Positions 32,489-52,412 of a stretch of 64,000 bases of DNA are shown here, piece after piece. The translations under genes were made by a program, and so were the position numbers. Every line of letters starts with the position of its first letter. Within the stretch, counting starts at the first letter, position 1. Origin of the DNA: a virus; IMG/VR virus record IMGVR_UViG_3300037882_002024, positions 7,245-71,244 of that record. One strand, 5' to 3'. The notes below the pieces were generated by a model. The model was given only the letters and a program-made list of their open reading frames with translations. It searched no databases and was not told the origin of the DNA.

Positions 32489-32725
32489 ATGAAGGCCATC
32501 TTTTTGCTCGTAACACTTCTCGGCGCAGGCTGCGCGCAATCCAACCTCGAAGACGCTCAGCGGCGCTGGCAGCCCCAGCATGGTCGCGAGCAAGAGCGCA
32601 AGACGTACACAGTAAAGCGTCGCACGCCATCAGGCGTCATCATCACCTACACCGTGACGCCTAACTACAAGCCGGAAGACTTCAAGCATGCGCGCACCTA
32701 CAAGGTGCCTGTGCGCGCTGACTAA
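32489..32725 (+). CDS. small predicted lipoprotein
   Basis: MKAIFLLVTLLGAGC lipobox; TAA stop in box 32722. Confidence 0.6.
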   Translation: MKAIFLLVTLLGAGCAQSNLEDAQRRWQPQHGREQERKTYTVKRRTPSGVIITYTVTPNYKPEDFKHARTYKVPVRAD

Positions 32726-32783
32726 ATTATTTTAGCCACTTCTCAGAAAAATAGTTGACAGAGCGCAAGGGGGCGGCTATAGT
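32722..32783 (+). promoter_or_regulatory. box plus cassette promoter
   Basis: Box 32722, AAAAATAG-TTGACA(32755)-17-TATAGT; leader hairpin CAAGGCCA/TGGCCTTG; AGAGGCAAG RBS. Confidence 0.9.
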
Positions 32784-32832
32784 ATCTTCACAAGGCCAAC
32801 AACTGGCCTTGAACCAAACCAAGAGGCAAGCC

Positions 32833-33270
32833 ATGCAAGAGTTCATCAGCCAAATCGAAGCCAGCCAAGAAGTTTTCGCCCGCAACACTGCCGACCAAAT
32901 CAAGAAGCTGCAAGACGCCGAAGCCAAGCGCAACCTGCTGGTGGAAATGCTGAAAGCGCGTCTGGTAACGCTGGTGCCTGCGCTGGAGAAGCGAGGCCTC
33001 AATCTGACCGACCTGCGCTTCTACCTGAACGACAACGGCAGCCTTGTGGTTTCAGCCAAAGGCGTCCCTTACGCCGGAAGCAAATTCAGGTTCATCAAGT
33101 TTGCAGGCTACGACGCTCAAGGGCGCGGCCGCAACCGCAAAACGCTGGACGCCAAGAAAGACAAGCTCGAAGAGGCGCTGGGCGTGTTCGTGAACGAGTT
33201 TAGCTTGGAAGCCAAGGACGTGGACGCCAACAACCGCGTCCTGCTCTGCTGGAACGAAGTGGTGACGTAA
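32833..33270 (+). CDS. hypothetical protein (first gene of cassette)
   Basis: ATG after GAGGCAAGCC. Confidence 0.7.
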   Translation: MQEFISQIEASQEVFARNTADQIKKLQDAEAKRNLLVEMLKARLVTLVPALEKRGLNLTDLRFYLNDNGSLVVSAKGVPYAGSKFRFIKFAGYDAQGRGRNRKTLDAKKDKLEEALGVFVNEFSLEAKDVDANNRVLLCWNEVVT

Positions 33271-33334
33271 GCAGAGCAGGACAGCCTGCCCGTCGCCCTT
33301 CACTAAAATTTTTTACTCTGCTTTGGGGACTGCA

Positions 33335-33535
33335 ATGAGCAACGTGTTTACCTCTTTGACCGACCTGCGCATTTGGGTTAATGACCAAACGAGCGGCCGG
33401 GATGGATGGGGCAGCATTGAGCGCGAGGAAGTAGTGCGAGCGATCCGCAGGATGCGGGCGCGGCCTAACTGGAACGAAGACTGGCGCGAGTTCCTTGACA
33501 GCCTACCCGACCTCGGCGAATTGGCCGGCCTGTAA
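33335..33535 (+). CDS. hypothetical protein
   Basis: GGGGA RBS after box 33303. Confidence 0.55.
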   Translation: MSNVFTSLTDLRIWVNDQTSGRDGWGSIEREEVVRAIRRMRARPNWNEDWREFLDSLPDLGELAGL

Positions 33536-33610
33536 GCAGCACGCGTGCGGCACTTGTGATGGGGCTGCACGCCTTCCAACATCCACGGTCATTATTACTC
33601 TGAGGCTCCT

Positions 33611-33787
33611 ATGTTGAATTTTGCAAGACTGCGCTTGGTGCTGATGAAAGACGGGCGCTTAGTACGCACGCAGGTCTACACGCATCAAGGCGCCTGCCTT
33701 GTTGGTGACCCAACGGCCTACATCATGTTGGGCGGCGAGCTTGTGTGGGTGCGCCCCGGTGAGTCTGTGTCGTTCATTGAGGCCTAA
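33611..33787 (+). CDS. small hypothetical protein (58 aa)
   Basis: GAGG RBS; MLNFARLRLV...SFIEA, below ORF-track cutoff. Confidence 0.45.
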   Translation: MLNFARLRLVLMKDGRLVRTQVYTHQGACLVGDPTAYIMLGGELVWVRPGESVSFIEA

Positions 33788-33807
33788 AACTAACCAAGGG
33801 GAAAGCC

Positions 33808-34359
33808 ATGTTCACGGACATCGAAAAGCAAGCGATCTACGAGCAGGTGCGCGCCAACGTGTTGGCCAAGTGCGGCCGTGGTCAAGGGCAGTGTCTCGAA
33901 TTTGCTATGCAGACGCTCCGGGCCATACAGGACGCACGGGGCCGCGCGGTGCGTGCCATCTTGCAGGCAGGCACTGCAGGCTGGCCATACATCGCCGACG
34001 AGGATGATGATGGCGTGATGCCGACGCACTTCACGTATATGTGGGACGACGCGTGTAACGCGATGGAGCGCCTGCGCGCAGGCATGCTAAACGGCTTCGT
34101 GCGTGACGGCAAGATTCTAGCAGCCCTGCCAGAGATTCACATTTGGGTTGCGCTGCCGCAGACCGGTGAGATAATCGACATGGCCACAGGGTTTTGGCCA
34201 GAGGCTGCTAAAGAGGCAATGGGAGTCGAGTGGCAGTGCGAACGACCGCCTGCCTTCCTGTGGGCCACGGCTGCACAGATGCCCGCGCGGGCGCGCTACG
34301 AGCCGAGTATGAGCGCCATTCAATTTGTCTTGACGCTGCTGCGCCAGATCACTGCATAA
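33808..34359 (+). CDS. hypothetical protein
   Basis: AGGGGA RBS; contains HIWVALP...IIDMAT. Confidence 0.65.
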   Translation: MFTDIEKQAIYEQVRANVLAKCGRGQGQCLEFAMQTLRAIQDARGRAVRAILQAGTAGWPYIADEDDDGVMPTHFTYMWDDACNAMERLRAGMLNGFVRDGKILAALPEIHIWVALPQTGEIIDMATGFWPEAAKEAMGVEWQCERPPAFLWATAAQMPARARYEPSMSAIQFVLTLLRQITA

Positions 34360-34372
34360 CAGGAGCGGGACC

Positions 34373-34663
34373 GTGGAACAGCTTACCCGTGAATCCATCC
34401 TCGCCACGAGGCCTCTGGATCGCCCGAAGGTGCTGGTGCGCTATAGCGCCATTAAGCGCTACGAGGATGGCCCCGACATCGCCGAGCACAGGCAGACGAC
34501 CGCGCGCATTGACATCGACGAAGGCGAGCCGTGGGCCTGCTTCGGCGCAGGCGGCGCATCCTACGCGTTTAGCTGCACGTGGGACGCTCTGCTGGAAAGC
34601 CTCAACGCCTGCTACGCGTGCCCTTTGATCTACACCGGCGCGCCGGTGGTCTACGAGTGCTAA
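34373..34663 (+). CDS. hypothetical protein
   Basis: AGGAG RBS; TAA stop in box 34660. Confidence 0.6.
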   Translation: MEQLTRESILATRPLDRPKVLVRYSAIKRYEDGPDIAEHRQTTARIDIDEGEPWACFGAGGASYAFSCTWDALLESLNACYACPLIYTGAPVVYEC

Positions 34664-34721
34664 ATTATTTTAGCCACTTCCAAGAAAAATAGTTGACATC
34701 AGCATGGCAGGTGGCTATATT
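34660..34721 (+). promoter_or_regulatory. box plus cassette promoter
   Basis: Box 34660, AAAAATAG-TTGACA(34693)-17-TATATT; leader hairpin ACAGGCGCA/TGCGCCTGT; ACCGAGGCAAG 34754. Confidence 0.9.
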
Positions 34722-34768
34722 GATCTTACAGGCGCAGTTGTTGCGCCTGTCCAACCGAGGCAAGGCAA

Positions 34769-35053
34769 ATGAACGCTAACCAACTATTCACGATCATTGA
34801 CCGCCAACAAGCCGCGATCATTCAAGACGTTTGCAATGCGACCAGCGCCGCAGAAATGCAAGCGGCTGTGAGCAAGATGGCTCTGGTGACCGACCTGTGG
34901 CGCGAAGCAGGGCGCGAAGTGGCTGTCGGATGTGTAGCGCGAGCCATCATCAATATGTGCGACTTTCGCGCTAAGAACGCCGGGACAACGAAGGAAGAGC
35001 GAGTAGCCTTCTGCCTTATCCCAGCCATGCTGAAAGAGGCTAAAATTTATTAG
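34769..35053 (+). CDS. hypothetical protein
   Basis: ATG after RBS repeat; TAG stop in box 35040. Confidence 0.7.
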   Translation: MNANQLFTIIDRQQAAIIQDVCNATSAAEMQAAVSKMALVTDLWREAGREVAVGCVARAIINMCDFRAKNAGTTKEERVAFCLIPAMLKEAKIY

Positions 35054-35077
35054 TCATTCTCAGAAAAATAGTTGACA
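35040..35077 (+). promoter_or_regulatory. truncated cassette promoter (box, A-tract and -35 only)
   Basis: Box 35040, AAAAATAG-TTGACA(35072); no -10-like hexamer at 17 bp and no leader/RBS repeat. Confidence 0.7.
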
Positions 35078-35314
35078 ACTGCCCGCGAAGCCGTCAAGCA
35101 GGACGATGCAGACAGCGCCCTCGTTCGTTTGGCGCGGTGCCTGCTCGTTAAGGCCAAGCCAGCAGGCCTTAACGCGCTGCTTGATGACTACGAACCGATC
35201 TTTATCGACGCCGTCGAGCCTCACGTTGACAGCGTCGCTATCTACGCACACGGCCTCAAGATCATCGTCAAGGCGGCGCTGGTCAGCGAGGCCCCACAGG
35301 AGAAGGCAGTATGA
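35072..35314 (+). CDS. hypothetical protein, start uncertain
   Basis: Open frame beginning at the TTG of the truncated promoter; ends in ATGA overlap with the kinase gene. Confidence 0.4.
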   Translation: MTTAREAVKQDDADSALVRLARCLLVKAKPAGLNALLDDYEPIFIDAVEPHVDSVAIYAHGLKIIVKAALVSEAPQEKAV

Positions 35315-35949
35315 AGCTGATGATCGTAATGCAGGGCGCGCCCGGTAGCGGAAAGTCCACCGAGGCCAAGCGCCTGCAAGCAGAGTTCGGGATCGACGCC
35401 ATCGTGAGCGCTGACGACTACCACACAGGCGCTGACGGAGTTTACCGCTTCGACTATCGGCGTGTCGGGGAGTGCCACGAGAGGGCGCAGAACGCCGCGC
35501 GGCTTCTGATGATGGAGAGCAAGTCGCTCATCGTCGACAACACGAACATATGGGCGTGGGAAGCCAAGCCGTATGTTGTGCCTGCTGTACTCCACGGGTA
35601 TCTTATCGCCTTTGTCCGGTGCCATGAGAATCGACCGAACATTCATGGCGTGCCCGAGGACAAGGTGCGTCAGATGCGAGACAGCATGGAGCCGCTAACT
35701 GTTCAGCACTGCCTTTCGGCGCTGCGGCCAAACTCGGCAGCGTCGGCAATGAAAGCCGCTCGCGAAGGAAGCTACAGCCTTTGCAAGGCTGCTGGCGCTG
35801 CGCTTGGTTCAGGGCCTATTCCGATGCTAAGCGCTCCGGCTGCTGTCATCGGCGAGCCGAGTCCGTACAACTACTCTGCGGCCAAGCTGGCCGAGCAAAG
35901 CTACGCAGGGGGCAAGAGTGAAAATCAGAATGTACCTGATGACGTGTGA
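35311..35949 (+). CDS. P-loop kinase (AAA_33 / polynucleotide kinase-like)
   Basis: MQGAPGSGKST, IVSADDY, SLIVDNTN, NIHGVP. Confidence 0.8.
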   Translation: MKLMIVMQGAPGSGKSTEAKRLQAEFGIDAIVSADDYHTGADGVYRFDYRRVGECHERAQNAARLLMMESKSLIVDNTNIWAWEAKPYVVPAVLHGYLIAFVRCHENRPNIHGVPEDKVRQMRDSMEPLTVQHCLSALRPNSAASAMKAAREGSYSLCKAAGAALGSGPIPMLSAPAAVIGEPSPYNYSAAKLAEQSYAGGKSENQNVPDDV

Positions 35950-36547
35950 CGGGCGTGAAGACGCGCTGAGCGAGACGCTGTGCAGCCTCGCGGAGTCGGA
36001 TTGGCCAGAGATGGCCGTGGTGGTCCGCGACGTGCATCGCCTGCCCGACCGCAAGGCCTCGCAGACTGCTACGGCGCTGCGCATCTTCGAGATGGCGCAA
36101 GGCCCCGAGTGCGACTACGTAGCCTTCTGCGAGGACGACATCCTGTTCAACAAGTCGATCTACGAGAATCTGTGCAACTGGAAGCCTCTGCAAGACGGCG
36201 CGCTGGTGGCGTCGGCGTACCATGATAAGGCTGTAGAGAAGGCGCCCGGTAACACGATTCTCGTGCCCTACGACCGCGTGGCAGGCTCGCAATTTTTGCT
36301 TGTGAAGAAAAGCTGGCTACCCGAATTGCTTGCGTGGTGGCCTTGCGTCGGCGACGACCTGATGCAAGACCTGCGCGTGTACCGGGCGCTTGGCATGCAA
36401 CACTCGCATGTCTACTTGCACGCGCCGACACTCGTGCAGCATCAGAGCAGGCCTTCGACGTGGGGCGGCGGGGCGCACCGTAGTCCTGTGTGGAATCCTT
36501 TCTGGCGGCACGACGAAAAGATTTTAGTCCATTCTGAAAAAAAATAG
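35918..36547 (+). CDS. glycosyltransferase-like protein (GT-A fold)
   Basis: MYLMTCDGRE, YVAFCEDDILF (xED/DxD-like), PTLVQH. Confidence 0.6.
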   Translation: MKIRMYLMTCDGREDALSETLCSLAESDWPEMAVVVRDVHRLPDRKASQTATALRIFEMAQGPECDYVAFCEDDILFNKSIYENLCNWKPLQDGALVASAYHDKAVEKAPGNTILVPYDRVAGSQFLLVKKSWLPELLAWWPCVGDDLMQDLRVYRALGMQHSHVYLHAPTLVQHQSRPSTWGGGAHRSPVWNPFWRHDEKILVHSEKK

Positions 36548-36575
36548 TTGACAAGAGCGCCCCGGCTGCTAAGAT
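36514..36575 (+). promoter_or_regulatory. box plus cassette promoter
   Basis: Box 36514, A-tract-TAG-TTGACA(36548)-16-TAAGAT; ACCGAGGCAAG 36596. Confidence 0.88.
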
Positions 36576-36608
36576 ACTTACATCGCCCAACCCAAACCGA
36601 GGCAAGCC

Positions 36609-36824
36609 ATGAGCAAGATCAAAGTAAGCGACTACTGTGCAATTGACGGCAAGCCGGGCCAAATCCGCTACATCAAAGAAGACGGTCCCTACACGTGGTA
36701 TGGCGTGAGCCTGCTTAACGAAGGCGAACGCGTTGATGAGTGGCAGGCCTGCCAAATCCAAGTGCTGACGCCAAGTGAAGGCGGACGGCTTGCAGCTAAA
36801 TGGATGGCTGAAAACAAAAAGTAG
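36609..36824 (+). CDS. hypothetical protein
   Basis: ATG after RBS repeat. Confidence 0.7.
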   Translation: MSKIKVSDYCAIDGKPGQIRYIKEDGPYTWYGVSLLNEGERVDEWQACQIQVLTPSEGGRLAAKWMAENKK

Positions 36825-36875
36825 CACAGTGCAAGGCGGACTAAAAATTTTTAGTCCGTTTTCTTTCTTGACCTT

Positions 36876-37235
36876 GTGACCGTGGAGCGTGCAATGGGCA
36901 TCCAACTTCAAAAAGATAAGCAGCGCATTTACTTTATCGGCGACACGGAAGGCCTGCGCGACAAGATTCGCGTACTCGGCGGGCGCTATGACTTCAAGCG
37001 CAACCAGTGGTGGGTAAGCGCTGTGATGCAAAGCGAGGCGGTGGCCATGCTCATCGAGGCGCAGAGTGACAAGGCGCCTGCCTGCGCGGCGAGCTTGCAG
37101 GTAGTCGGCGAAGTGCAGCGCAACGGGATCACGTACTATGTGGTGAGCTTTGCCGATCATGGCAAGCGCGTGCGCTTTGTCTCGGCCCCGGACGCCGAAG
37201 GGCGCTTTCGCGACTTCTACGCCATGCCTTGGTAG
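36876..37235 (+). CDS. hypothetical protein (LGGRYD...WWV motif)
   Basis: ORF after box 36841; start uncertain. Confidence 0.5.
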   Translation: MTVERAMGIQLQKDKQRIYFIGDTEGLRDKIRVLGGRYDFKRNQWWVSAVMQSEAVAMLIEAQSDKAPACAASLQVVGEVQRNGITYYVVSFADHGKRVRFVSAPDAEGRFRDFYAMPW

Positions 37236-37331
37236 AGTTCAAGGTTCACGGCAAAATTTTCGTGAAGGCATCCGAACTCACGCAAGGCTGGAACTAAGCG
37301 ACTTACAGGAAGCAATTGTTCGCCCGCACAC

Positions 37332-37763
37332 ATGACAGAGGAAGGCATGACTGAGAAAGAGCTAAACGATCTAGCCGATGTGTACGACGGCTGCGAGCTT
37401 CGGCTGATTGACCCGCAGCAGCCTTGGCTAGGCTACAAAGTCGGGGACACAGGCGCGGTAATTTACCGCGACGGCGTTGGTGGCTTGATGCGTCTAATGC
37501 GCATCAAGAAGGTCGGCAGGCGCCGTTTTATCGCGACGCGCGCGGAAGTTGTGCAAAGCCTCATAGCCAATGGAGAAGGCGCAGCAGCCGAACGCGCTCG
37601 CAAAGCAGACGAGGCGCTGGCGTATTGGGAGCGGCGTTTTTGCGACGCCTTCGGTGTGGACCCGCAGGCGCTCCAGTTCAAGCGGATCGCCGTGCGCGAG
37701 ACAATGCGCGACCTGCAAGCGTGGGCAGGGTGCCACGGCTGGGAAGACGGAGCGCCAGAGTAA
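37332..37763 (+). CDS. hypothetical protein
   Basis: GAGGAAGG RBS favours ATG 37347. Confidence 0.55.
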   Translation: MTEEGMTEKELNDLADVYDGCELRLIDPQQPWLGYKVGDTGAVIYRDGVGGLMRLMRIKKVGRRRFIATRAEVVQSLIANGEGAAAERARKADEALAYWERRFCDAFGVDPQALQFKRIAVRETMRDLQAWAGCHGWEDGAPE

Positions 37764-37784
37764 TTACAACGTCCAGCGCCCCGG

Positions 37785-37845
37785 CTAAAAATTGTTGACG
37801 CTGCAGGGCTGCACTGAGATAATGACAGTCACTAAAAATTTTTAG
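37785..37845 (+). promoter_or_regulatory. cassette-type promoter with box at the transcription start
   Basis: AAAAATTG-TTGACG(37795)-17-GATAAT; box 37832. Confidence 0.7.
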
Positions 37846-37858
37846 CCGGGAGCTTGCA

Positions 37859-38350
37859 ATGGACCGAGACGCAGTGGTAGCAACAGCTAAGACGTGGGGC
37901 GCACGCTTCGAGTTCTTCGATACGCGCAGCGTGTCCTTTTTGATGCCGAGTGAAGCAGCGGCCATAGAATGCTTCAAGCTCGTGCCGTGGCAAAGCACGA
38001 AGCCTGTGTGCTACCCTACAGGCTGGGCGGTCACGGTGTATCTTGACAGGCCCCGCATCGACAGTGTGCCGAGCGACGTGTTACCTGCACCCCTGCTTCT
38101 CTCCACGGGCCGGAGCGTTGTGTTTCATTGGAGTCAAGACGCAGGCGGGCCGCTCGCGTGGTTTATCTCGCCGCGCGGCCATGTAAGGCCCGACGAGCAA
38201 GCGCAGGCTGCAATGGTGCTACGCGTGTGGATGAAGCAAACGAATCGTATCGTAGAAGGAATTGACGATGGACCAATTTTACCGAACGGAAGTCTACCCG
38301 ACGCGCGCGCATTTGGCGAGCAACGAGGGTTTGATTGCAGTGGTCTATGA
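37859..38350 (+). CDS. hypothetical protein
   Basis: GGGAG RBS after box. Confidence 0.6.
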   Translation: MDRDAVVATAKTWGARFEFFDTRSVSFLMPSEAAAIECFKLVPWQSTKPVCYPTGWAVTVYLDRPRIDSVPSDVLPAPLLLSTGRSVVFHWSQDAGGPLAWFISPRGHVRPDEQAQAAMVLRVWMKQTNRIVEGIDDGPILPNGSLPDARAFGEQRGFDCSGL

Positions 38351-38540
38351 GGGGCGCTCGTTCGACGTGGCAATTGCTACGGCACACGAGCAGGCAGACG
38401 CTTACGGTGGCGTTGCGGACGTCAAGATGTCGTGCCCCACGAAGGTGACGACTTACGCGCATGCTAAGCGTGAGCCGGACACGCTCTACGACATGGTGCG
38501 CGGCGAGCAGGACTGCGACGAAGGCGACGCCGGAGCATAA
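38262..38540 (+). CDS. hypothetical protein
   Basis: AAGGA RBS; overlaps upstream ORF. Confidence 0.45.
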   Translation: MTMDQFYRTEVYPTRAHLASNEGLIAVVYEGRSFDVAIATAHEQADAYGGVADVKMSCPTKVTTYAHAKREPDTLYDMVRGEQDCDEGDAGA

Positions 38541-38571
38541 CAACCTATCGCCCGAACGAAAGGAAATAACG

Positions 38572-39792: not shown

Positions 39793-40173
39793 ATGCAACC
39801 ACTCACCTGCGATGAATGCTCCGGGGCCTGCTGTCAGTTTGTCAGCACGCCACCGGGCTTGTTCCCGATCTTCGCCTCACCGAAGTGGGACGGCCTCTAC
39901 ATGGCCGACACCGAAGACTATATTCATTGGGCCAGCATGCCTGCCGCGCTCCAAGACGAGCTACGCGCTGTGTACGCCGAGCGCCGCGAGGATGGACAGG
40001 CCTGCGTGTGGCTGCACGAAGGGCGCTGCAAGCACTACGTCCACAGGCCGGAAGCGTGCCGCAATGCTGTGACGGTAGGCGACGCAGCCTGTCTTGAGGC
40101 CCGCGACCAAGTGATCCAGCTTAACCTCGAACGGTTGCAATTATCTTTGCCAAAATTGAAGAAAAATAGTTGA
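39793..40173 (+). CDS. YkgJ-family Cys-cluster (Zn/Fe-chelating) protein
   Basis: CDECSGACC ... CVWLHEGRCKHYVHRPEACR. Confidence 0.75.
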   Translation: MQPLTCDECSGACCQFVSTPPGLFPIFASPKWDGLYMADTEDYIHWASMPAALQDELRAVYAERREDGQACVWLHEGRCKHYVHRPEACRNAVTVGDAACLEARDQVIQLNLERLQLSLPKLKKNS

Positions 40174-40198
40174 CAGTAGGGCAGGAAGCGGCTAAGCT
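40161..40198 (+). promoter_or_regulatory. cassette promoter
   Basis: AAAAATAG-TTGACA(40170)-17-TAAGCT; leader hairpin; ACCGAGGCAAG 40233. Confidence 0.88.
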
Positions 40199-40576: not shown

Positions 40577-40650
40577 CCTAAGTCGGGCAATTCGCCTTAG
40601 ACTTTAATTCCGCGCAGGCCTGCAAGCCTGCGCTATTTTAGGAGCGATCT

Positions 40651-41625
40651 ATGGGAACAATGGAACGGCGCTACGGAAGCAAGCGGCCCGCTGTAATTGC
40701 GAGCTTTCGCCTGCTAGGGCTAGCGCCAACGTATGCGGCTGGTGAACTAGAGCAACTGCCGTTTGGCAAGCCAAAGCACGTGTGGCTTTCCGCAACCAAG
40801 CGACTGGAGCGACACACTTTTCGTGGCGTTCCCGGCAACGGAATTACGATCCTTTTACCCGGCGCAGAACAGGATTCTCTGAGCGCCTTGCCAGCAGGAT
40901 GCGCTTGGGTTTGGCGTGTCTGCAAGAGGATCGGAAGCCGTGACCGCAAGGACGGCATTGAGATTGTAGTAACGCATTGGCGCGCGACAGACTGCGCGCA
41001 ATGGGAAGAAGCCTATCTAGGCGTTGATATGGGCAGCGATGTCATGACGATTATCGCTCGAACAGAGGACGGCCAGCACTTGTGGCAACAAGACTTTCGG
41101 CGCCTGCCGACCAGCTTGGAGAATTACGAGCTACGACGAATCTTTGAGTGGCAGCGGAACAAATTTTACGCTCACTTAACCTACCGCGAAACCGAGGAGA
41201 TTGCGCTAGCATTCTTAGGCTCCGTTGATCCAAGCTGGACCCTTAATGCTGCAAACCGCCTTGCTTCGCGCCTGCTGTACGGTTATGCGCGCGATACGGG
41301 ATGGCGCAAGCTAGCACTGCACGAGCAAGAGCGCTATGGCGTTACTGGCCAGTGGCACAAACAAGCGCAGCTTGATCTAATCAAGGGTGAGGCTGCAATC
41401 AGGGACTCAACAGGGGTCGGGGGATACACCAAGCAGGCAGCCAGCGGCCAAGTTCCCATCTACGGCGATTCTGCGCTTGTGGCTGTTGCTGAAGACTATG
41501 CCGACCGTCATGGCCTGCCTGCCGAAGTGCGCGCGCACATGCCAGCCAAAGCCTTTGCAATCTGGCTTCGCACGCAAGGTTGTGAAGAGCTAGCCAAAGC
41601 AGTCGAGGCTTGTGCGCCGTTTTAG
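40651..41625 (+). CDS. hypothetical protein (324 aa)
   Basis: AGGAG RBS; long ORF, no motif recognised. Confidence 0.65.
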   Translation: MGTMERRYGSKRPAVIASFRLLGLAPTYAAGELEQLPFGKPKHVWLSATKRLERHTFRGVPGNGITILLPGAEQDSLSALPAGCAWVWRVCKRIGSRDRKDGIEIVVTHWRATDCAQWEEAYLGVDMGSDVMTIIARTEDGQHLWQQDFRRLPTSLENYELRRIFEWQRNKFYAHLTYRETEEIALAFLGSVDPSWTLNAANRLASRLLYGYARDTGWRKLALHEQERYGVTGQWHKQAQLDLIKGEAAIRDSTGVGGYTKQAASGQVPIYGDSALVAVAEDYADRHGLPAEVRAHMPAKAFAIWLRTQGCEELAKAVEACAPF

Positions 41626-41640: not shown

Positions 41641-41703
41641 CTAAATTATTTTAGTCGCTTTCAAAAAAAAATAGTTGACAGAGCAACCAGTCTCGGCTAT
41701 AGT
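41641..41703 (+). promoter_or_regulatory. box plus cassette promoter
   Basis: Box 41641, A-tract-TAG-TTGACA(41675)-17-TATAGT; ACCGAGGCAAG 41745. Confidence 0.9.
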
Positions 41704-42016: not shown

Positions 42017-42075
42017 CGTAAACAAGCCAACAAGGCCACTAAAAAATTTTAGTGGCCTTTACTCAGGAGCAAGAA

Positions 42076-42798: not shown

Positions 42799-42827
42799 TT
42801 GACAGCAGGAGCTAAGTCGGCTAAGCT
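42790..42827 (+). promoter_or_regulatory. cassette promoter
   Basis: AAAAAATAG-TTGACA(42799)-17-TAAGCT; GTCGCCCAA leader; ACCGAGGCAAG 42847. Confidence 0.88.
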
Positions 42828-44585: not shown

Positions 44586-44623
44586 GAAAAATAGTTGACA
44601 GATGCCCGAGCGCCCGCTATATT
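44586..44623 (+). promoter_or_regulatory. cassette promoter
   Basis: AAAAATAG-TTGACA(44595)-17-TATATT; GTCGCCAA leader. Confidence 0.88.
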
Positions 44624-44671: not shown

Positions 44672-45046
44672 ATGTCCGAGAACAAGTCCGAACCTATGTG
44701 CATCCTCATCACCTACTCGCTGTGCAAGGCCACGCTGCGGGGCCTCACGGTAGCCAACTCGGAGCGCGACCTACGCAACAAAATGGGCATGCGAATCGAG
44801 AACGAGTGCTGGGGCACGCTCTGCCCGGTTTCCGCGCACGTCGAACTGGATTTTAACCGCGACGAAGACAAGATCACGGTAGACATCACGGACGTGGACA
44901 GCGTCGCGTTGGCGCGGTGGCTGACGGCCGATGAATGCAATCTGAGCTACCTGAAAGACCTAACCAAATCCGCGCAAGTGGCCATGCTGGAGTTCATCGC
45001 GGAACAACTTGGAGAGCTACGCGTAGACGACAACGCAGACGACTAA
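44672..45046 (+). CDS. acidic hypothetical protein
   Basis: GGAG RBS; TAA stop in box 45043. Confidence 0.65.
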   Translation: MSENKSEPMCILITYSLCKATLRGLTVANSERDLRNKMGMRIENECWGTLCPVSAHVELDFNRDEDKITVDITDVDSVALARWLTADECNLSYLKDLTKSAQVAMLEFIAEQLGELRVDDNADD

Positions 45047-45104
45047 ATTATTTTAGCCGCTTGTCAGAAAAGAAGTTGACAAGCGGCCGTCCGCCCGCTA
45101 TATT
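45043..45104 (+). promoter_or_regulatory. box plus cassette promoter
   Basis: Box 45043, AAAAGAAG-TTGACA(45076)-17-TATATT; GTCGCCCAA leader; ACCGAGGCAAG 45128. Confidence 0.9.
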
Positions 45105-45337: not shown

Positions 45338-45544
45338 ATGAACGCGATTTTCAATGAACAAGTGGTGGCCGAGCTTCTTGAGACGGCCTATGAGCTTGAC
45401 GGCCAAGGCCTCTTGCTGACGCACAGCGCGCAAGACAACGCCAGCATCGAAGAGCTATATCAACAGGGGCACCTTCGCTACGAAGGCGGGGCCTATCACA
45501 TTACGCGCAGTGGCCGGGCGCTGCTGCGCGACCTGAAACGGTGA
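45338..45544 (+). CDS. small hypothetical protein, winged-helix-like tail
   Basis: ELYQQGHLRYEGGAYHITRSGRALL resembles a wHTH wing; weak. Confidence 0.45.
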   Translation: MNAIFNEQVVAELLETAYELDGQGLLLTHSAQDNASIEELYQQGHLRYEGGAYHITRSGRALLRDLKR

Positions 45545-45547
45545 GAC

Positions 45548-45868: not shown

Positions 45869-45884
45869 GGCAAAAGATTCTGGA

Positions 45885-45929
45885 AAAAAATAGTTGACGA
45901 CGTCCGCGCAGCAGGCTAAAGTATTTTAG
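45885..45929 (+). promoter_or_regulatory. cassette promoter with box overlapping the -10
   Basis: AAAAAAATAG-TTGACG(45894)-17-TAAAGT; -10 lies inside box 45916; ACCGAGGCAAG 45948. Confidence 0.85.
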
Positions 45930-45960
45930 TCGCCCAACAACTAACCTACCGAGGCAAGCC

Positions 45961-46371
45961 ATGAACCGTTCTTTCATCACCGCAGGCAAGGCAATCTTCA
46001 CCATCAGCAACCCCAGCGGCGAGCGCTACACGTTCCGCGTCACTCACAAACCTGCAAGCAACGGCTACGCAGAGGCTTTCTTTGTGTCGCTGCTAACAGG
46101 CAGCGACAACGAGAACGACTACACTTATTTGGGCATGATGAACCGAGTCACAGGCACCGTGGCCTTGACGAAGAAGAGCGCCTACAAAGACGATAGCAAG
46201 CCGGTGCGTGTGATCCGTTGGGCGCTCGGCCTCATCTGGAGTGGCAAGGCCTTTCCAGAAGGCTACAGCGCTTGCCATGAGGGTAAGTGCGGGCGCTGCG
46301 CGCGGCTGCTCACGGTGCCCGAGTCTGTGCAATCGGGCTTTGGGCCAGAGTGCATTAAGCTGGTGTTTTGA
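45961..46371 (+). CDS. DUF6011-like Zn-finger protein
   Basis: C-terminal HEGKCGRCARLLTVPESVQSGFGPEC. Confidence 0.7.
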   Translation: MNRSFITAGKAIFTISNPSGERYTFRVTHKPASNGYAEAFFVSLLTGSDNENDYTYLGMMNRVTGTVALTKKSAYKDDSKPVRVIRWALGLIWSGKAFPEGYSACHEGKCGRCARLLTVPESVQSGFGPECIKLVF

Positions 46372-46378
46372 TTATACC

Positions 46379-46415
46379 CCTAGGGGCTTGATGGTGTAGC
46401 CATCAAGCCCCTAGG
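46379..46415. repeat. 16-bp perfect hairpin without T-tail
   Basis: CCTAGGGGCTTGATGG-TGTAG-CCATCAAGCCCCTAGG. Confidence 0.85.
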
Positions 46416-46430
46416 AAACCAAGGAAAGCC

Positions 46431-46640
46431 ATGAACGAACGATACGAAGAGATGTTGCGCAGCTTCCCGCACTGCGTCGATAACTTGCAGATGCCGACCG
46501 ACGAGCGCGGGCTGATTAAAACAGCCCGCGCACTTCTTAGCAAGCTACGCGCCAACAAAAGCAACCCGCGTCGCAACCACATCAGCGCGCTAGAGCGCTG
46601 GCTAAAAATTTTTAGTGAGTCAAGCCGTGCCTGCATCTAG
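46431..46640 (+). CDS. hypothetical protein
   Basis: AAGGA RBS; contains box 46602 in-frame. Confidence 0.55.
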   Translation: MNERYEEMLRSFPHCVDNLQMPTDERGLIKTARALLSKLRANKSNPRRNHISALERWLKIFSESSRACI

Positions 46641-46911
46641 CGCCATTCTGTGCAGCCTCGGTGGCAAAGACTTCGAGTGTATCGCACAGGTCACCGAGAT
46701 TTTCGGCATGGGCAATCGCTTTTATGCGTTGTTCGATGCCGACAATTCACTAGGCGCCAACCGCGTCGATGTGCTGTGCCAACAAGGCATGTGTACCATG
46801 CGGCTGTATGGCGTGCATGGCAAAGCCTTTGGCCTGCTTCACCAATCGAGCGTCGCGCTCGATGACTTGAGGCAGGCCTTTTGCAACGCAACCGGAATTG
46901 AGATACCATGA
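46615..46911 (+). CDS. hypothetical protein
   Basis: GTG start after box; overlapped chain. Confidence 0.45.
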   Translation: MSQAVPASSAILCSLGGKDFECIAQVTEIFGMGNRFYALFDADNSLGANRVDVLCQQGMCTMRLYGVHGKAFGLLHQSSVALDDLRQAFCNATGIEIP

Positions 46912-47228
46912 TCGACCTTGCAGCCTTTCAGCATGCGCACCCATTTGATGTCGCGTCCTACGAGCGGCTTATCGCTCGCGTGGAGTTGTTGCCTTTGCAG
47001 CGCGACGCTGGCGGGGCTGCAGTGATTTTGCACGAGGGCGCCTACACGCCACAGAGGAATAGGCAGACAAAAGCAGTCCGAATGAGGCTGCACAGACTGC
47101 GAGTAACAATCGTCGTGGGCTGCAATGTCTCCGTGGGATCGATCTTGGGCGCCAAGCCGCATACTGATTACAACCCATTGCCGAGATACCTCGATGAAGA
47201 AAAAAGCACAGGCCCCGCAGCAACTTGA
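46908..47228 (+). CDS. hypothetical protein
   Basis: ATGA overlap. Confidence 0.5.
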   Translation: MIDLAAFQHAHPFDVASYERLIARVELLPLQRDAGGAAVILHEGAYTPQRNRQTKAVRMRLHRLRVTIVVGCNVSVGSILGAKPHTDYNPLPRYLDEEKSTGPAAT

Positions 47229-47985
47229 CGCGCTCGCTTACGTGGCGCAGAACGGCGACGTCCCCAAGCTCAGTGATGGCAAGGGGCCGAAGCCGTGGCA
47301 CTATCGCGGCTGGCTCGTGCCTTACATCTCGCAGATTGATGATCGGTTTTGGGGGCGCTACCGTTACCACAAAGACACGATTGAGGCCGGACGCCTGCTA
47401 GATGCCCCGATCCCGCGAATTGCGTTTAGCCGTCGTGCCACCGATGTTACCAAGCATCTTAACGAGTGCTGTCGGCTGATCGGCTACGACAACGGCGGCT
47501 GGGGCGACTTTACGCGCCTGCTCGAATGGCTGTGCTTTGCGGTGCGCGCATCCTCTGACTATCCACGGCATATCGACGAAAAGGCGCAAGAGGCCTTATA
47601 TCGCAAGCTCAACGTCGGGCCGATGATTCAGCAGCCCTACGACTATCTTGGCGATTGGGTTGCAGAGCGCATCGGAAGCGGCTCGTGGAACCCCAACGCG
47701 TTCTTCCCGACGCCGCACGAGGTGGTCGAATTGATGGTGCAAATGCAGATGGGGCAAGGGGAAGACCTGCGCGCGAAGACAGTGTGCGACCCCTGCACAG
47801 GCTCGGGCCGCATGCTCATGCACGCGAGCAATTACTCGCTGCGGCTGTACGGCATTGATATTGACCCGATTGCGGTGGCAATGTGTAAAATAAATGCGGC
47901 GCTTTACGTTCCGTGGCTGGCCTTCCCGATTCCTGATGCTTTCTTTGTGCAGCGCTATCGAGAGTCGTGCAGTATCTTTTGGTGA
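47194..47985 (+). CDS. N6-methylase-like protein retaining only the SAM-binding half
   Basis: FFPTPHEVVELM, VCDPCTGSGRML, LYGIDID..AVAMCKIN; ends before any NPP(Y/F) catalytic motif. Confidence 0.7.
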   Translation: MKKKAQAPQQLDALAYVAQNGDVPKLSDGKGPKPWHYRGWLVPYISQIDDRFWGRYRYHKDTIEAGRLLDAPIPRIAFSRRATDVTKHLNECCRLIGYDNGGWGDFTRLLEWLCFAVRASSDYPRHIDEKAQEALYRKLNVGPMIQQPYDYLGDWVAERIGSGSWNPNAFFPTPHEVVELMVQMQMGQGEDLRAKTVCDPCTGSGRMLMHASNYSLRLYGIDIDPIAVAMCKINAALYVPWLAFPIPDAFFVQRYRESCSIFW

Positions 47986-48392
47986 GCAGCGTGTACTATT
48001 TCGGATGTTTTGGCGAGAGCGGGCACTATCTATGGCGTGTCGGCATGCAATGGATCATGAAGAGCGAGCGTGAGGCGTTGCCGTTTCGGGAGAGCCTTCT
48101 CGACGGGCCTTTGATTCCCAAACAGGCCGACGCGAATCAAGTGCAGGGGCACGCGTACCGCAGCGAAGTCAATGGCCACACGATCATCACTTTTTGGGAC
48201 CGCACCGGCGATAGTCGCCCCGGAAGCAAAAGCGTGTTCGTCGTGGAAGGAAACCTTAGCATGCGCGAGGTAATCGAGCGCGCGCGCCTCGCGTTCCCTG
48301 CAGTGTTTCGCCGCTTCACGTTTTCGATTGTGTCGCAAGAGCAGCTAGCCATTCCGGGCGACGAGTGGCGCTTGATATGGGAGCCTAACTAG
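47967..48392 (+). CDS. hypothetical protein
   Basis: Overlapped chain; YYFGC...GHYLW...FWDRTGDSRPGS. Confidence 0.55.
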   Translation: MQYLLVSSVYYFGCFGESGHYLWRVGMQWIMKSEREALPFRESLLDGPLIPKQADANQVQGHAYRSEVNGHTIITFWDRTGDSRPGSKSVFVVEGNLSMREVIERARLAFPAVFRRFTFSIVSQEQLAIPGDEWRLIWEPN

Positions 48393-48401
48393 CGAGGAAT
48401 C

Positions 48402-48632
48402 ATGAAGAACATTTTTGAGCAAAGTCACGATGAGCTTATGATGACAGTGCGCAGGTTGCGGCGCATGTTGCACCACATCGGCGAGCTTGTTGAGCCTGTG
48501 GAGAGCTTCGAGCGCGCCAGTGGCGCCGCGCTCTGCCCGAACTGCGGCCTTGAGTTGCGCGACCACCCGGAGCAGCGTGGCGCTACTGGCGTTACGGTTA
48601 TCTCTTGCGACGGCAGACGCTGGAAGTTGTAA
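48402..48632 (+). CDS. small Zn-ribbon hypothetical protein
   Basis: GAGG RBS; CPNCG ... SCDG. Confidence 0.55.
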   Translation: MKNIFEQSHDELMMTVRRLRRMLHHIGELVEPVESFERASGAALCPNCGLELRDHPEQRGATGVTVISCDGRRWKL

Positions 48633-48639
48633 GGCCGCG

Positions 48640-48704
48640 TAGACAGCGCGCAGGCCCCCCGCTAAAATCAAGTCGTCGCACCGGCAGCGACTAAAATAAT
48701 TTAG
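48640..48704 (+). promoter_or_regulatory. portal-operon promoter with downstream box
   Basis: TAGACA(48640)-17-TAAAAT(48663); box 48691 just before the RBS. Confidence 0.65.
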
Positions 48705-48714
48705 TGGGGAAGCG

Positions 48715-51700
48715 ATGAGCAACGCATTGAAGCAGGCGCTAGGCGCCAAATCATTTGGGCTGCGGGCGCCTGACATCGGCTCGACGCCGATGCTGTTCGG
48801 CAGCGCCCGAGGCGCCGGGCTGGGACTGGGGACAAGCCCCAGCAATACGCTGACGCATCACAACGAACAGTATCGGCACTATGCGGGCTGGGTATACGCT
48901 TCGATTCGGCCTATTGCGCAGTCGGTGGCACGGCAGGCGGTGCGCGTCGCCCGTGTGCCCAAACGCCGAAATGCACGCACCGCGCCCATGACAGCCAAGA
49001 GCCACATTTTTACCTCGCAGGGGCCAGTATCCAAAGATCGCGCAGCGCAAGAATTGTGGCTGCGGCGCACCTTGCCGGGGGCGCTCAAGTCGCACGCCGA
49101 GACAGCCGAGATTCTCGAATGGCACCCGATCCTCGACATCATCAACAAGCCTAACCCCATCATGGCGCGCTGGGCATTGTTCCTCACCACCGTGGCCAGC
49201 ATCGACCTTACAGGCAAGGCCTACTGGTGGATAAAGCAAGGTGACGAAGACGGCGAGCCTCTGCAAATCTGGCCGATGCCAAGCCATTGGGTTGCGCCAG
49301 TTCACACGAAGCAAAAGCTCTTCGAGTCGTGGGATATTCGGCCCGATGGCGCCAGCAAGCCCATCAACGTTCCACGGAAACAAGTCGTGTGCTTCTACAC
49401 GCCCGACCCTGCAAACCCGTTCAACGCTTATGCCACGCTGCAAGCGCAGGCCCGCGCCGTCATCAGCGACGAGGCGATTGCCGAGGCGCAGCGCCAATCA
49501 TTTCAGCGCGGCATCTTCCCCGGCTTGGCTGTGGTGATGGGCAGGCTTCCCGATGCGATGGGCAACGCAGGCGCAGGTGAGCGCCCCTTGCTCACCAACG
49601 ATCAGCGCCAGCAAATTACCATCGGCATCAAGCAGATGTTTCAGGGCGTGTACAACTACGACGAGCCGTTGATTTTGGATCAGTTGATCCAAGACATCAA
49701 GCGCATCACGCAGTCGCCGCGCGAGATGGACTTCATGCAAAGCGGCCTTGCCACCAAAGAAAAAATCACACAGGCCTTTGGCACCAACCCCATCGTGATG
49801 GGGCAAGTAGAGAACGCATCGCGTAACAGCGCTGCGACGGCTCAGCAAATCTTTTACGACCTAGCGGTAAACCCGAAGATCGCGTTGATGAGCGAGTTCC
49901 TGTCGATGTGGTTCAGCCCGGAGTTTAGCACGCCTGACGAGGAATTGCTGCTTTACATCGAAGAGGCGCGTTCAAGCGATCCCGATTCCGACCGGGAAGA
50001 CTATCGGCTACTGAAAGACCACTTCGCCATTGATCGCAACGAAATGCGCGCAGGCCTGCGCGGCTTGCCGCCAATTGACAGCGGCGAAATGATCGCGGTG
50101 CCTGCGGGCCTGACATGGATGGATATTGCGGATGTGCAAGACACCAACATGGCGCCGATGCTGCTTGACGCTGAGGCTGCGCCTGTGGCTAGCGAAGACC
50201 CAAAGCCGACCGACGAAGAAAAGCCCAAAGAGAATCAGCAGCAGGACGAGCAGGTGCCCGACGCAGGCGCGGCGGCGCTCAACGGCGCGCAAATTGCTAG
50301 CCTGCTTTTGGTCATCAAAAAGATCACGTCCGGCGAGCTTACGCGCGAAGTGGCGATGGCCATTCTTGGGGCCTCGTTCCCAACAATGGACGAGGCTGTT
50401 TTAGCCAAGATCATCGAAGGCGTTGTTGTCAAGCCGCCTGCGCCCACTGTCGATGAAGTGCGCAGCGTCGTTGCGCAGGCTCTACAGGCCCGCGAAGACG
50501 AAGAGCTAACAGACCGCATTGGCACCAAGGCCCCGGTGCCGAACATCGCGCAAAACGAAGCGTATGATTGCGGCGCTGCTGCAGCGCGTGCCGTGGCTGA
50601 GCATTACGAAATGGTCCACGAATGGACGTCACAGGATTTTGTGATGGCACTCAACACTTCGGACGAGGCAGGCACCGAGCCGCGCCACATCGTTGACCTT
50701 TTCAAGCACAACGGTTGCGACGTGCAGTACGGCAAGCATTGGACGCTAGGCAGGCTCTTCGACAGCCTGCGGCGCGGTGTTCCGGTGGTGTGCTGCATTC
50801 AAGGCCTGACCTTTGGCGACGACGACGACCGCGCCAAACAGCAGAACGGCCATTGGGTTGTTGTCGATGGGGCTGCGGACAATCGCATCTTCTACATGGA
50901 CCCGTCCACAGGGGCGCATGAGCAAGCCGATTGGCAAACATGGAAAGACAATTGGAAGGATCGAGGCGTTGACGGGACGCCTTACGAGCGATACGGGATC
51001 GCCGTCGGCCCGCCGCCCAAACCCGTTGTTGACGAGCAGAGCAACACGATGAACGCGCGCGCTTGCGTGCTGCGCCTCAAGTCGCATGGCTACTATTGCC
51101 GCGCCAAGTCGCTGGGCCTCGCAGACAGGATCGCCGAAATCAAGGGATTCTTCAAGGCGCAACATCAAACCATTTACACAGCGCTAATGACGTACTATCG
51201 ACGCCAGCGCGCCGCCATCGAAGCGAAGCTCGATGACTGGTCGAAGAGCGTCAGTTTTGATGGCATTGCGCCGATGACTGGCGACCTGCTAGCCACGTGG
51301 CCTTACGACGGCCAGAAGGCCACCGACCAAGAAGATAGCGCCATGCAGCTAGTAGACAGCCTGCTCCCGTTGCATGCGACGACAGCGCGGCTCGTTGGAG
51401 CGGTGCGCGACGCTATCTTGCAGGTGGCACTCAATGCGGCAGGCAAGGAATACAGCGACCTTGAGCCGATGGCCGACGAGGAAAAAGCCAAGCGCAAGCC
51501 AAAGGTGGACCGCACGCCTTTGCCAAAACCGATTCGAGAAGTATGCCACGATTATCTCGGCCGCGTAGTCGCCGAACCGTATTGGGAAGACATGACGTAT
51601 CGGGTGCGCCTGCAGATGGCTCGTTCGATCCGACGAGGCCTCGCGCATGGTGAAGATCGCGCCGCCATTGCGCTGCGCGTGCTGGCGGTCGTGAGCGAAG

Positions 51701-51999
51701 GAAACGACGCCGTGCGTGCCGACCTCATCGCCACCACTGAGGCCAACGGCGCGTACAACCTTGGGCAACACGCCACACGGGCGCACCTGATTGCGCAGGG
51801 CGCCAACATCACTAAGCTATGGCAGGTTGTCGAAGATGGCCGCGAGCGGGCCAGCCATGACGAAGCGAACGGGCAGGAAGTGAAGCACAAAAACAAATTC
51901 CGCGTCGGCAAAGAATGGTGCTTGTATCCGGGGGCGCAGAATCTTTCGCCGGGAGAGCGCTGTCGGTGCCGCTGCACAGCGATCAGCATTCCGCACTAA
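48715..51999 (+). CDS. portal protein fused to a C39-like cysteine peptidase and a MuF (SPP1 gp7-like) head morphogenesis domain
   Basis: HK97-type portal (WVYASIRPIAQSVA, HPILDIINKPNP, GKAYWW, AFGTNPIV); peptidase Q..YDC619..GH713W..MD729P; MuF IATTEAN..KLW..DGRER.SH..YPG..CRCRC. Confidence 0.88.
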   Translation: MSNALKQALGAKSFGLRAPDIGSTPMLFGSARGAGLGLGTSPSNTLTHHNEQYRHYAGWVYASIRPIAQSVARQAVRVARVPKRRNARTAPMTAKSHIFTSQGPVSKDRAAQELWLRRTLPGALKSHAETAEILEWHPILDIINKPNPIMARWALFLTTVASIDLTGKAYWWIKQGDEDGEPLQIWPMPSHWVAPVHTKQKLFESWDIRPDGASKPINVPRKQVVCFYTPDPANPFNAYATLQAQARAVISDEAIAEAQRQSFQRGIFPGLAVVMGRLPDAMGNAGAGERPLLTNDQRQQITIGIKQMFQGVYNYDEPLILDQLIQDIKRITQSPREMDFMQSGLATKEKITQAFGTNPIVMGQVENASRNSAATAQQIFYDLAVNPKIALMSEFLSMWFSPEFSTPDEELLLYIEEARSSDPDSDREDYRLLKDHFAIDRNEMRAGLRGLPPIDSGEMIAVPAGLTWMDIADVQDTNMAPMLLDAEAAPVASEDPKPTDEEKPKENQQQDEQVPDAGAAALNGAQIASLLLVIKKITSGELTREVAMAILGASFPTMDEAVLAKIIEGVVVKPPAPTVDEVRSVVAQALQAREDEELTDRIGTKAPVPNIAQNEAYDCGAAAARAVAEHYEMVHEWTSQDFVMALNTSDEAGTEPRHIVDLFKHNGCDVQYGKHWTLGRLFDSLRRGVPVVCCIQGLTFGDDDDRAKQQNGHWVVVDGAADNRIFYMDPSTGAHEQADWQTWKDNWKDRGVDGTPYERYGIAVGPPPKPVVDEQSNTMNARACVLRLKSHGYYCRAKSLGLADRIAEIKGFFKAQHQTIYTALMTYYRRQRAAIEAKLDDWSKSVSFDGIAPMTGDLLATWPYDGQKATDQEDSAMQLVDSLLPLHATTARLVGAVRDAILQVALNAAGKEYSDLEPMADEEKAKRKPKVDRTPLPKPIREVCHDYLGRVVAEPYWEDMTYRVRLQMARSIRRGLAHGEDRAAIALRVLAVVSEGNDAVRADLIATTEANGAYNLGQHATRAHLIAQGANITKLWQVVEDGRERASHDEANGQEVKHKNKFRVGKEWCLYPGAQNLSPGERCRCRCTAISIPH

Positions 52000-52122
52000 G
52001 GGGCCTCATGGACATCATGCTATTTTTTTTGGTAATGAACAATCTGCACTGGATCGTAGCCGCCATCTTTGTGGCGGCTGCCGCCTACATCCTGCGCGTC
52101 TGGCTGTGGCTACGGAGTAACA

Positions 52123-52365
52123 ATGGGCGATGTTAGCCGGTTTGAAACGAACCGTAAGGGCACGATGGCCGTGGAGTGGCTGCAGTTGCACCTAGCCGAA
52201 AAGCAGGGCACAGACTTCACGGGGCGTATCGTGGTAGAACTCATTTACCACGATGGCTACCCAACGAAAGCGCGCTTCGTTGATGAAACCACCGTCTGCG
52301 ATATGAGCGACGAGGAGCGCACAGCGTACATCGAAAAAAACAAAAAAATACCGCCCGCCACTTGA
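52123..52365 (+). CDS. hypothetical protein
   Basis: GGAG RBS; ATG 52123. Confidence 0.55.
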   Translation: MGDVSRFETNRKGTMAVEWLQLHLAEKQGTDFTGRIVVELIYHDGYPTKARFVDETTVCDMSDEERTAYIEKNKKIPPAT

Positions 52366-52412
52366 CACGGAGCAAAACGCCGTGTAGGGTGAAGCTAGCT
52401 AAAATTTTTTAG
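52362..52412 (+). promoter_or_regulatory. prohead-protease promoter with box at the start site
   Basis: TTGACA(52362)-17-TAGGGT; box 52399. Confidence 0.75.

Follow-up and report, generated by a model that had tools for sequence, protein, structure and literature searches.

A palindromic box at the gene junctions of a Planctomycetes-linked phage: a possible operator of a lineage-specific regulator

The element described here is a short palindromic box repeated throughout a 64,000-nt window of viral DNA (positions 7,245 to 71,244 of IMG/VR record IMGVR_UViG_3300037882_002024), and its closest described counterparts are the dispersed sites of two groups of mycobacteriophages and of RK2. In Cluster A, the stoperators recognised by the L5 gp71 repressor are reportedly present as dozens of operator copies within short intergenic gaps, often touching stop or start codons, with further copies at promoters, and the bound repressor is said to block transcription. 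Stoperators are 13 bp in length, lack symmetry and point in the direction of transcription; the phages that carry them are temperate and have a known immunity repressor. A summary of the Cluster A elements is available (PMC4351075). Cluster O mycobacteriophages possess >30 dispersed 17-bp dyad repeats, TGTTCGG-N3-CCGAACA, of which the function is not known; the arms are invariant and the centre is free, many copies are intergenic, and these phages have no integrase and encode proteins with a ParB-like domain (PMC4351075). KorB and KorA of plasmid RK2 are global repressors with multi-copy palindromic operators, acting both near and far from promoters (PMC11790492).

The window was cut from one viral contig of 87,710 bp, that of an uncultured phage, with a G+C content of 57 % and all of its genes on one strand (positions marked 'genome' below are those of the contig). 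Defined as the 14-mer CTAAA-N4-TTTAG, with no more than one arm mismatch allowed for site counts, the box occurs at 39 sites in the window and at 53 in the 87.7-kb genome, where ~2 would be expected. With up to three mismatches, the window contains 77 strand-matches to the 14-mer, compared with 1.8 expected from shuffles. Thirteen of the 53 boxes carry one mismatch, which in nearly all of these disrupts an arm pair. Including its flanks, the consensus reads approximately YGR-CTAAAA-NN-TTTTAG-YCR, giving a full palindrome of 14–20 bp.

As with stoperators, most of the 53 copies occupy the gap that separates a stop codon from the following ribosome-binding site. The two systems differ in that the box is a 14–20-bp palindrome in this genome, with an oriented asymmetry only at outer positions and only in three relatives (L007, L013 and L024), and in that no lysogeny genes were found in ~90 proteins scanned. 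This last feature is shared with Cluster O, as are the number of dyad copies (>30), the fixed arms and the free centre. In Cluster O, however, around one-third of the repeats are intragenic and no link to start codons or promoters is seen, whereas the box is kept at junctions and after a conserved late promoter, and its sequence changes between relatives. The half-site letters TTTAGC/GCTAAA are identical to those of the RK2 KorB/KorA operators (PMC11790492), but the RK2 half-sites face inward (TTTAGC-G-GCTAAA) at a dozen sites, whilst those of the box face outward (GCTAAAA..TTTTAGC) at ~50, and the resemblance may be due to chance. By analogy, the box system resembles a variant of the dispersed phage operator networks, with a distribution like those of Clusters A and O.

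Of the readings compared below, the best, and a possible one if somewhat short of probable, is that a regulator specific to this phage lineage recognises the box as an operator in double-stranded DNA and there represses transcription or obstructs it as a roadblock. That a protein binds the box, that this regulator is encoded by the phage and that it represses are what we infer from sequence comparison.

Gene junctions and the late promoter

The box is a general junction element, present at ~40 % of gene junctions, and nearly all copies have the placement between stop codon and ribosome-binding site given above. In at least 16 of the 53 cases the upstream open reading frame (ORF) terminates at the box's own TAA, and in approximately 25 a start codon lies 10–21 nt 3′ of it. 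Using a rough gene model, gaps of <14 nt contain no boxes at all, whilst about half of the larger gaps are boxed. Downstream of each early promoter come one to three genes, after which there is a box. As some 35 of the 53 lack a promoter in their vicinity, any rule built on promoter position accounts for only a minority of sites. The typical layout is as follows.

6475–6488, no strand assigned: typical junction box, with a stop codon directly 5′ and an ATG 10 nt 3′
9854, 11703, 12473, 14343, 24965, 26210, 29073, 43682 and 63272: boxes with the same junction layout

The strongest support for a repressing role comes from the promoter that precedes the protease-scaffold/capsid operon. This sigma70-type promoter is kept in six related phages, with TTGACA invariant, and in each of the six that phage's own version of the box begins 8–17 bp after the −10 element. 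In the numbering used here and below, a 17-bp spacer is assumed and the start is set 7 nt after the −10.

52340–52412, plus strand: late promoter, with an A-rich upstream tract, TTGACA at 52362, N17, TAGGGT and box 52399 at about +3
52413–52500, plus strand: conserved late leader, the 3′ end of which is a hairpin and T-rich run adjoining the protease-scaffold start codon

The ~100-nt leader is also conserved in relatives (L011:4931–5052, L012:7668–7787 and L014:7747–7869). Its terminal hairpin lies directly 5′ of the ribosome-binding site and resembles an attenuator that would need antitermination.

The initial annotation had listed further sites at which the box overlaps or follows a −10 or start region, and had proposed that a single protein uses such positions to silence morphogenesis genes. 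At 45916, 37832, 21188, 52399, 3761 and 48691 the placement at −10/+1 or downstream is real, and several of the promoters so overlapped or followed are weaker ones ahead of morphogenesis genes. As to the two remaining sites, box 60806 overlaps a −10-like hexamer, yet its spacing to the TTGACA at 60782 is 19 bp, and box 54527 overlaps a TTGACT that has no −10 at usable spacing 3′ of it. As the late promoter with a box after its −10 is kept in six phages, the repressing half of the proposal is plausible and has been strengthened.

45894–45929, plus strand: promoter before the DUF6011 gene, TTGACG-N17-TAAAGT, with the −10 formed by the left half of box 45916
37795–37845, plus strand: promoter, TTGACG-N17-GATAAT, with box 37832 starting at about +3
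21119–21201, plus strand: promoter 5′ of the gene preceding the large terminase, TTGACG (21149)-N17-TAGAAT, flanked by box 21119 at −30 and box 21188 at about +5
48640–48704, plus strand: weaker promoter, TAGACA-N17-TAAAAT; box 48691 starts near +17 and leaves 10 nt to the portal ATG
60782–60819, plus strand: TTGACA, 19 bp and the TAAAAT of box 60806, the box lying 16 nt before a start codon

Immediately 5′ of the terminase region, a ~38-bp repeat holding the box (cggcccgaaattccR-box-cgcgacag) occurs in two copies, at 20617–20653 and 21104–21140, which are 487 bp apart and bracket an 80-amino-acid ORF.

In the mechanism proposed, a symmetric, probably dimeric, sequence-specific protein of the phage lineage would recognise the box as double-stranded DNA, with a mainly negative effect. 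Where the box covers the −10, the start or the first transcribed bases, initiation or escape would be blocked; the promoters concerned would be the late protease-capsid promoter and those before the terminase-region, portal, 37859 and DUF6011 genes. Promoter-less junction boxes would act as roadblocks or insulators, dividing the one-strand genome into short units consisting of a promoter, one to three genes and a box.

Symmetry, hairpins and variants in related phages

Database searches for relatives had mixed returns. GenBank phage searches with DNA and capsid protein queries gave no matches of use, an IMG/VR terminase search found nothing, an IMG/VR scan for the box-plus-promoter pattern returned only chance hits in AT-rich contigs, and none of the public sequencing runs searched contained >6 % of the phage words. 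The capsid protein has hundreds of metagenomic homologues. A scan of a genome collection with this protein alone gave no matches; a profile scan placed distant capsid relatives in bins labelled Gemmata, Pirellulaceae and other Planctomycetes, and it is by these labels that the phage lineage is linked to the Planctomycetes. On every related contig of sufficient length, a corresponding palindrome is found at comparable positions, in the following forms.

L007: CTAAAACGTTTTAC
L001 and L002: GTCAAACGTTTGAC
L013: GTAAAA-NN-TTTTAT
L011, L012, L014 and L016: cGG-CTCAGA-NN-TCTGAG-CCg
L015: CTAAGA-NN-TCTTAG
L024 (of the relatives, the closest as regards the recombination-gene region, which lies outside the window): CTAAAA-WW-TTATAG

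The position of the box is thus conserved whilst its sequence changes, with both arms altering together across lineages (TAAAA, TCAAA, TCAGA and TAAGA) and the central bases remaining free. Within the genome itself, symmetric base preferences reach 3 bp past the 14-mer on each side, position −1 being a purine in 51 of the 53 boxes and the first base after the box (+14, counting box base 1 as 0) a pyrimidine in all 53.

Since every gene is on one strand, all boxes are transcribed, and the same symmetry could therefore reflect a hairpin in the transcript, serving as an antiterminator target of the nut/boxB kind, as a processing-nuclease site or as a stabiliser punctuating polycistronic RNA. The lambda N system has two nut sites per genome, with a recognised boxB loop. 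The box shares with boxB its nature as a small phage-specific palindrome 3′ of promoters, a sequence that differs between relatives, and an association with terminators that need read-through. Unlike boxB, it has ~50 sites, free central bases, weak hairpins and no sign of selection on pairing. With regard to this last point, the flanks vary independently (24 Watson–Crick pairs observed vs 25.7 expected), A–C pairs in the flanks are not depleted (8 vs 7.4) and no compensated double arm variants exist amongst the boxes. The combination of free 'loop' bases with fixed arms is, moreover, the pattern of a DNA spacer rather than of a recognised RNA loop. Median predicted fold energies are −12.8 kcal/mol for the CTCAGA-type relatives, where the folds are stable, but only −3.6 kcal/mol here, which is marginal, and −1.4 kcal/mol in L007, where folding is essentially absent; because hairpins are weak in these two, a shared function at the level of RNA folding is unlikely. 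From these comparisons, a double-stranded site for a symmetric protein fits better than an RNA fold.

Certain boxes nevertheless hint at a link to termination. Most lack the characteristics of intrinsic terminators; in 5–8 of the 53, a GC extension with a T run or an adjoining terminator is seen, the boxes in question being 56153, 42039, 36841, 41641, 15851 and genome 276, 1619 and 85909.

56148–56180, plus strand: box 56153 at the tip of a hairpin that has a GC extension and a T-rich tail, immediately 3′ of the capsid gene
42032–42062, plus strand: box 42039 at the tip of a hairpin with 7 further bp of stem and TTT after it
36833–36862, plus strand: box 36841 within a terminator-like hairpin
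15851–15900, plus strand: box 15851, then at once a strong intrinsic terminator, with GGAG and a start codon behind it

Strong intrinsic terminators at 15871–15900, 28104–28146, 40612–40651 and genome 85904–85947 are directly followed by GGAG and a start codon. This leaves no room for a promoter, so the downstream genes must depend on read-through. Such read-through, the six to eight boxes embedded in or directly preceding terminator hairpins, the position of a box at the 5′ end of a late leader that itself ends in a terminator-like hairpin, and the fact that asymmetric variants follow the direction of transcription all speak for a transcript hairpin; set against the absence of pairing covariation and the weak folds, they leave that explanation quite unlikely.

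The same terminators bear on a different proposal, in which the box would itself be a middle or late promoter or initiator, its −10-like TAAAAT being used by host polymerase together with a phage factor to yield very short leaders. The left half, TAAAAT, agrees with the −10 consensus at five of six positions, and at 45916, genome 76041 and L013:2979 it serves as a −10 with a −35 located 17 bp upstream; many boxes, furthermore, lie 10–21 nt 5′ of start codons. The CTCAGA and GTCAAA forms, however, are not −10-like, terminators directly follow boxes 15851 and genome 276, several boxes are inside terminators, and no box is found between the terminators at 15871, 28104 and 40612 and the start codons that follow them. 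A gap of 10 nt to the ATG would also leave the ribosome-binding site untranscribed unless initiation took place inside the box, and no polymerase or sigma gene was found in the ~90 proteins scanned. We therefore regard a promoter function as highly improbable. Resemblances to IHF, sigma54 and integron attC sites were dropped as they do not fit all box types.

Returning to the variants, boxes also occur in frame inside the portal and protease-scaffold ORFs of relatives (L011:3353 and 6278, L012:6094 and 9016, and L014:5125). Their offsets match between phages for the portal gene (L011, L012 and L014) and the protease-scaffold gene (L011 and L012) and resemble domain borders. L013 has a gene boundary at these positions, which suggests gene fusions that have kept the junction box.

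Amongst its structural genes, L011 also harbours insertions of four genes, three for Endonuclease VII and one of the HNH type, at 7165–7557, 9380–9916, 14246–14773 and 15625–16224; three of the four end at or beside a box, whilst the HNH gene has no box nearby. A PAS-domain protein of ~200–225 amino acids is kept in the structural block of L012 (13820–14497), L013 (14023–14622) and L014 (14856–15533).

The CTCAGA form was additionally sought in an 8.1-Mb Gemmata bin, where 18 exact sites on five contigs were recovered, compared with 0 for a reversed-pattern control. A host regulon was rejected, as the sites are few and clustered. Approximately 15 palindromes of this type cluster at L022:4536–20000 and L023 (bin contig C24, 48.5–80 kb), where many have one mismatch, some are inside a longer shared repeat and ordinary host genes adjoin. 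A prophage at the box-rich end of C24 was likewise rejected: although host genes adjoin, there are no proteins in common with the phage and no evidence of lysogeny. The cluster may represent another mobile element with the same motif.

Cassette promoters with and without an upstream box

A class I promoter has its activator site centred at around −61.5 or −71.5, or at a greater distance upstream with the helical face kept, and is typically weak in the absence of the activator. From the −61.5 position, the initial annotation had extended its proposal to a dual switch, in which the one box-binding protein, besides repressing over −10/+1, would boost six early cassettes from −61.5 by way of the alpha C-terminal domain of RNA polymerase. 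The six cassettes are present exactly at the coordinates that had been given, with the box 32–34 bp before TTGACA.

32722–32783, plus strand: cassette with box 32722–32735 (holding the previous gene's TAA), an A-tract, TTGACA 32755 (distance 33), N17 and TATAGT
34660–34721, plus strand: cassette with box 34660–34673, TTGACA 34693 (distance 33), N17 and TATATT
35040–35077, plus strand: truncated cassette with a one-mismatch box, an A-tract and TTGACA 35072 (distance 32), without −10 or leader
36514–36575, plus strand: cassette with a one-mismatch box within the end of the upstream ORF, TTGACA 36548 (distance 34), N16 and TAAGAT
41641–41703, plus strand: cassette with box 41641–41654 in a short GC-flanked hairpin followed by TTTC, TTGACA 41675 (distance 34), N17 and TATAGT
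45043–45104, plus strand: cassette with box 45043–45056, TTGACA 45076 (distance 33), N17 and TATATT

With a 17-bp spacer the boxes cover about −68 to −55 and are indeed centred at −61.5, albeit that the promoter at 35072 lacks a −10. In the region of this truncated cassette (35040–35314), the TTG of the −35 hexamer could start an 80-amino-acid ORF. The position agrees with the CRP-type class I/II rule, as do boxes over −10/+1 at repressing positions.

All six belong to a single repeat family of 15 promoters genome-wide, in which an A-tract, ATAG, TTGACA, N16/17, a −10, a leader and AACCGAGGCAAG precede the ATG. The upstream regions of the other nine contain no box-like sequence, and six of these nine are listed here.

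3701–3774, plus strand: no upstream box, with box 3761 in the leader at about +26
5100–5128, plus strand: no box
9349–9376, plus strand: no box
40170–40198, plus strand: no box, overlapping the end of the upstream gene
42799–42827, plus strand: no box
44595–44623, plus strand: no box

Boxed and unboxed cassettes are equally alike (mean identities of 0.55, 0.52 and 0.54) and do not fall into separate subfamilies. The common promoter module extends ~19–20 bp 5′ of the −35, with a TTCT motif preceding the A-tract, and the box sits 4–6 bp beyond its edge. A spacing of 32–34 bp is thus what results when a junction box abuts a compact module of ~19 bp, and the six boxes at −61.5 are, by their sequence context, best described as the junction box of the preceding gene adjoining a strong promoter module. 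The cores are near-consensus (TTGACA-N16/17-TATAGT/TATATT), with an A-tract at about −38 to −46, so that at the sequence level the cassettes are probably self-sufficient and require no activator. A promoter that depends on an activator would typically look quite the reverse.

Whether the spacing is kept elsewhere could be examined in the related phages, and it is not. Upstream boxes are found at −23 (twice, L013), −15 (L012) and −34 (L014); the DUF6011 gene, which has a box over the −10 here, has one at −23 in L013; and L024, which shares the cassette promoter family, has two such promoters and no box at −33 in either. Of the four upstream positions, three (−34 and −23) do differ by about one helical turn, lending weak support to a face-of-helix effect, although the sample is too small to weigh. 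Together with the tight spacing in the six cassettes, the further box at −30 of the 21149 promoter and the repressing positions, which are real and conserved, this is what can be said for class I activation. In view of the nine of 15 promoters without a site, the near-consensus cores and the spacing lost in relatives, it is improbable, and the activating half of the dual switch is unsupported. The correction has a value of its own, in that the −61.5 coincidence should not count as evidence for class I activation.

Candidate binders and wider meaning

Amongst the ~90 proteins, Pfam and PHROG scans detected neither a polymerase nor a sigma factor nor an integrase, and only a single, weak helix-turn-helix (HTH). 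One candidate binder, the presence of which speaks for the operator reading, lies outside the window: a 118-amino-acid protein (genome 85947–86303) that resembles an XRE/Cro-type HTH protein in language-model features, structure neighbours and a weak PDB match. A word-based homologue search with it found only itself, whilst an exhaustive search found two orthologues, which are syntenic and beside SSB, exonuclease and ERF genes. Further, weak candidates are two ParB_N-like proteins; these and the XRE-type protein are to be taken as leads only. The product of the small gene just 5′ of the late promoter does not qualify as a conserved DNA binder, and atlas look-ups for two small box-adjoining proteins gave nothing informative.

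6499–8889, plus strand: two ParB_N-like proteins (6499–7131 and 8275–8889) flanking a DNA methyltransferase

Both ParB_N-like proteins have a GxGRxxAA motif and weak matches to Noc and Spo0J, and the first (6499–7131) ends in a zinc-ribbon-like CPKC motif. Another DNA-level role would thus have the box load a CTP-dependent clamp of the ParB/KorB/Noc type, which would spread along the DNA and silence genes at a distance; a further DNA-level role would make it a boundary at which modules are exchanged by recombination. ParB-family sites are multi-copy palindromes of 13–16 bp, boxes lie at gene and domain borders (including those within the fused portal and protease-scaffold ORFs of relatives), and Cluster O phages pair >30 dispersed palindromes with ParB-like proteins (PMC4351075). 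Yet the ParB_N matches, at 24.3 and 20.1 bits, are below the Pfam cut-off of 26.3, their position around a methyltransferase is a common arrangement probably unrelated to regulation, and, compared with the KorB operator, the half-sites of the box point the other way. As for a boundary, gene order around the boxes is conserved amongst relatives, with no sign of frequent shuffling. Either role is, on balance, very unlikely.

Elsewhere in the gene content there are Pfam matches to dATP/dGTP pyrophosphohydrolase (PF04447) and the Acb3 CBASS inhibitor (PF25187), at 17458–18603 and 28146–28937. PF04447 is the family used by phages that replace adenine.

Several observations weigh against an operator for a lineage-specific repressor. 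The asymmetric outer positions are oriented with transcription (6:0 in L007, ~8:2 in L013 and 5:1 in L024), which a simple homodimer site does not predict. The CTCAGA box is common to phages with capsids only 36–65 % identical to that of the window, and so the type of box does not follow capsid similarity. The boxes that form the apex of terminator-like hairpins, or directly precede terminators, hint at an RNA-level or termination-linked role. No box-binding protein was identified amongst the proteins scanned, and with no lysogeny gene in that set, a genome-wide repressor would have no obvious time of action within the lytic cycle.

A more far-reaching form of the operator reading may be called a co-evolving 'operator code', in which ~50 roadblock sites for one regulator would stand at nearly every non-overlapping junction and gate the sigma70 late promoter, with specificity shifting between relatives through symmetric half-site changes and a regulator that might be a clamp of the ParB/KorB kind. 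We hold this to be rather doubtful.

To our knowledge, almost nothing is known of gene regulation in phages of Planctomycetes. The box offers a clear and testable regulatory element, comprising one motif family and a conserved late promoter with an operator-like site just after its −10 and near the presumed start, and the natural specificity variants of the relatives permit half-site-swap experiments. It may also help to account for dispersed palindromes in other phages, such as those of Cluster O. Were the operator code to hold true, it would represent a palindromic, and possibly lytic-cycle, counterpart of the mycobacteriophage stoperators.

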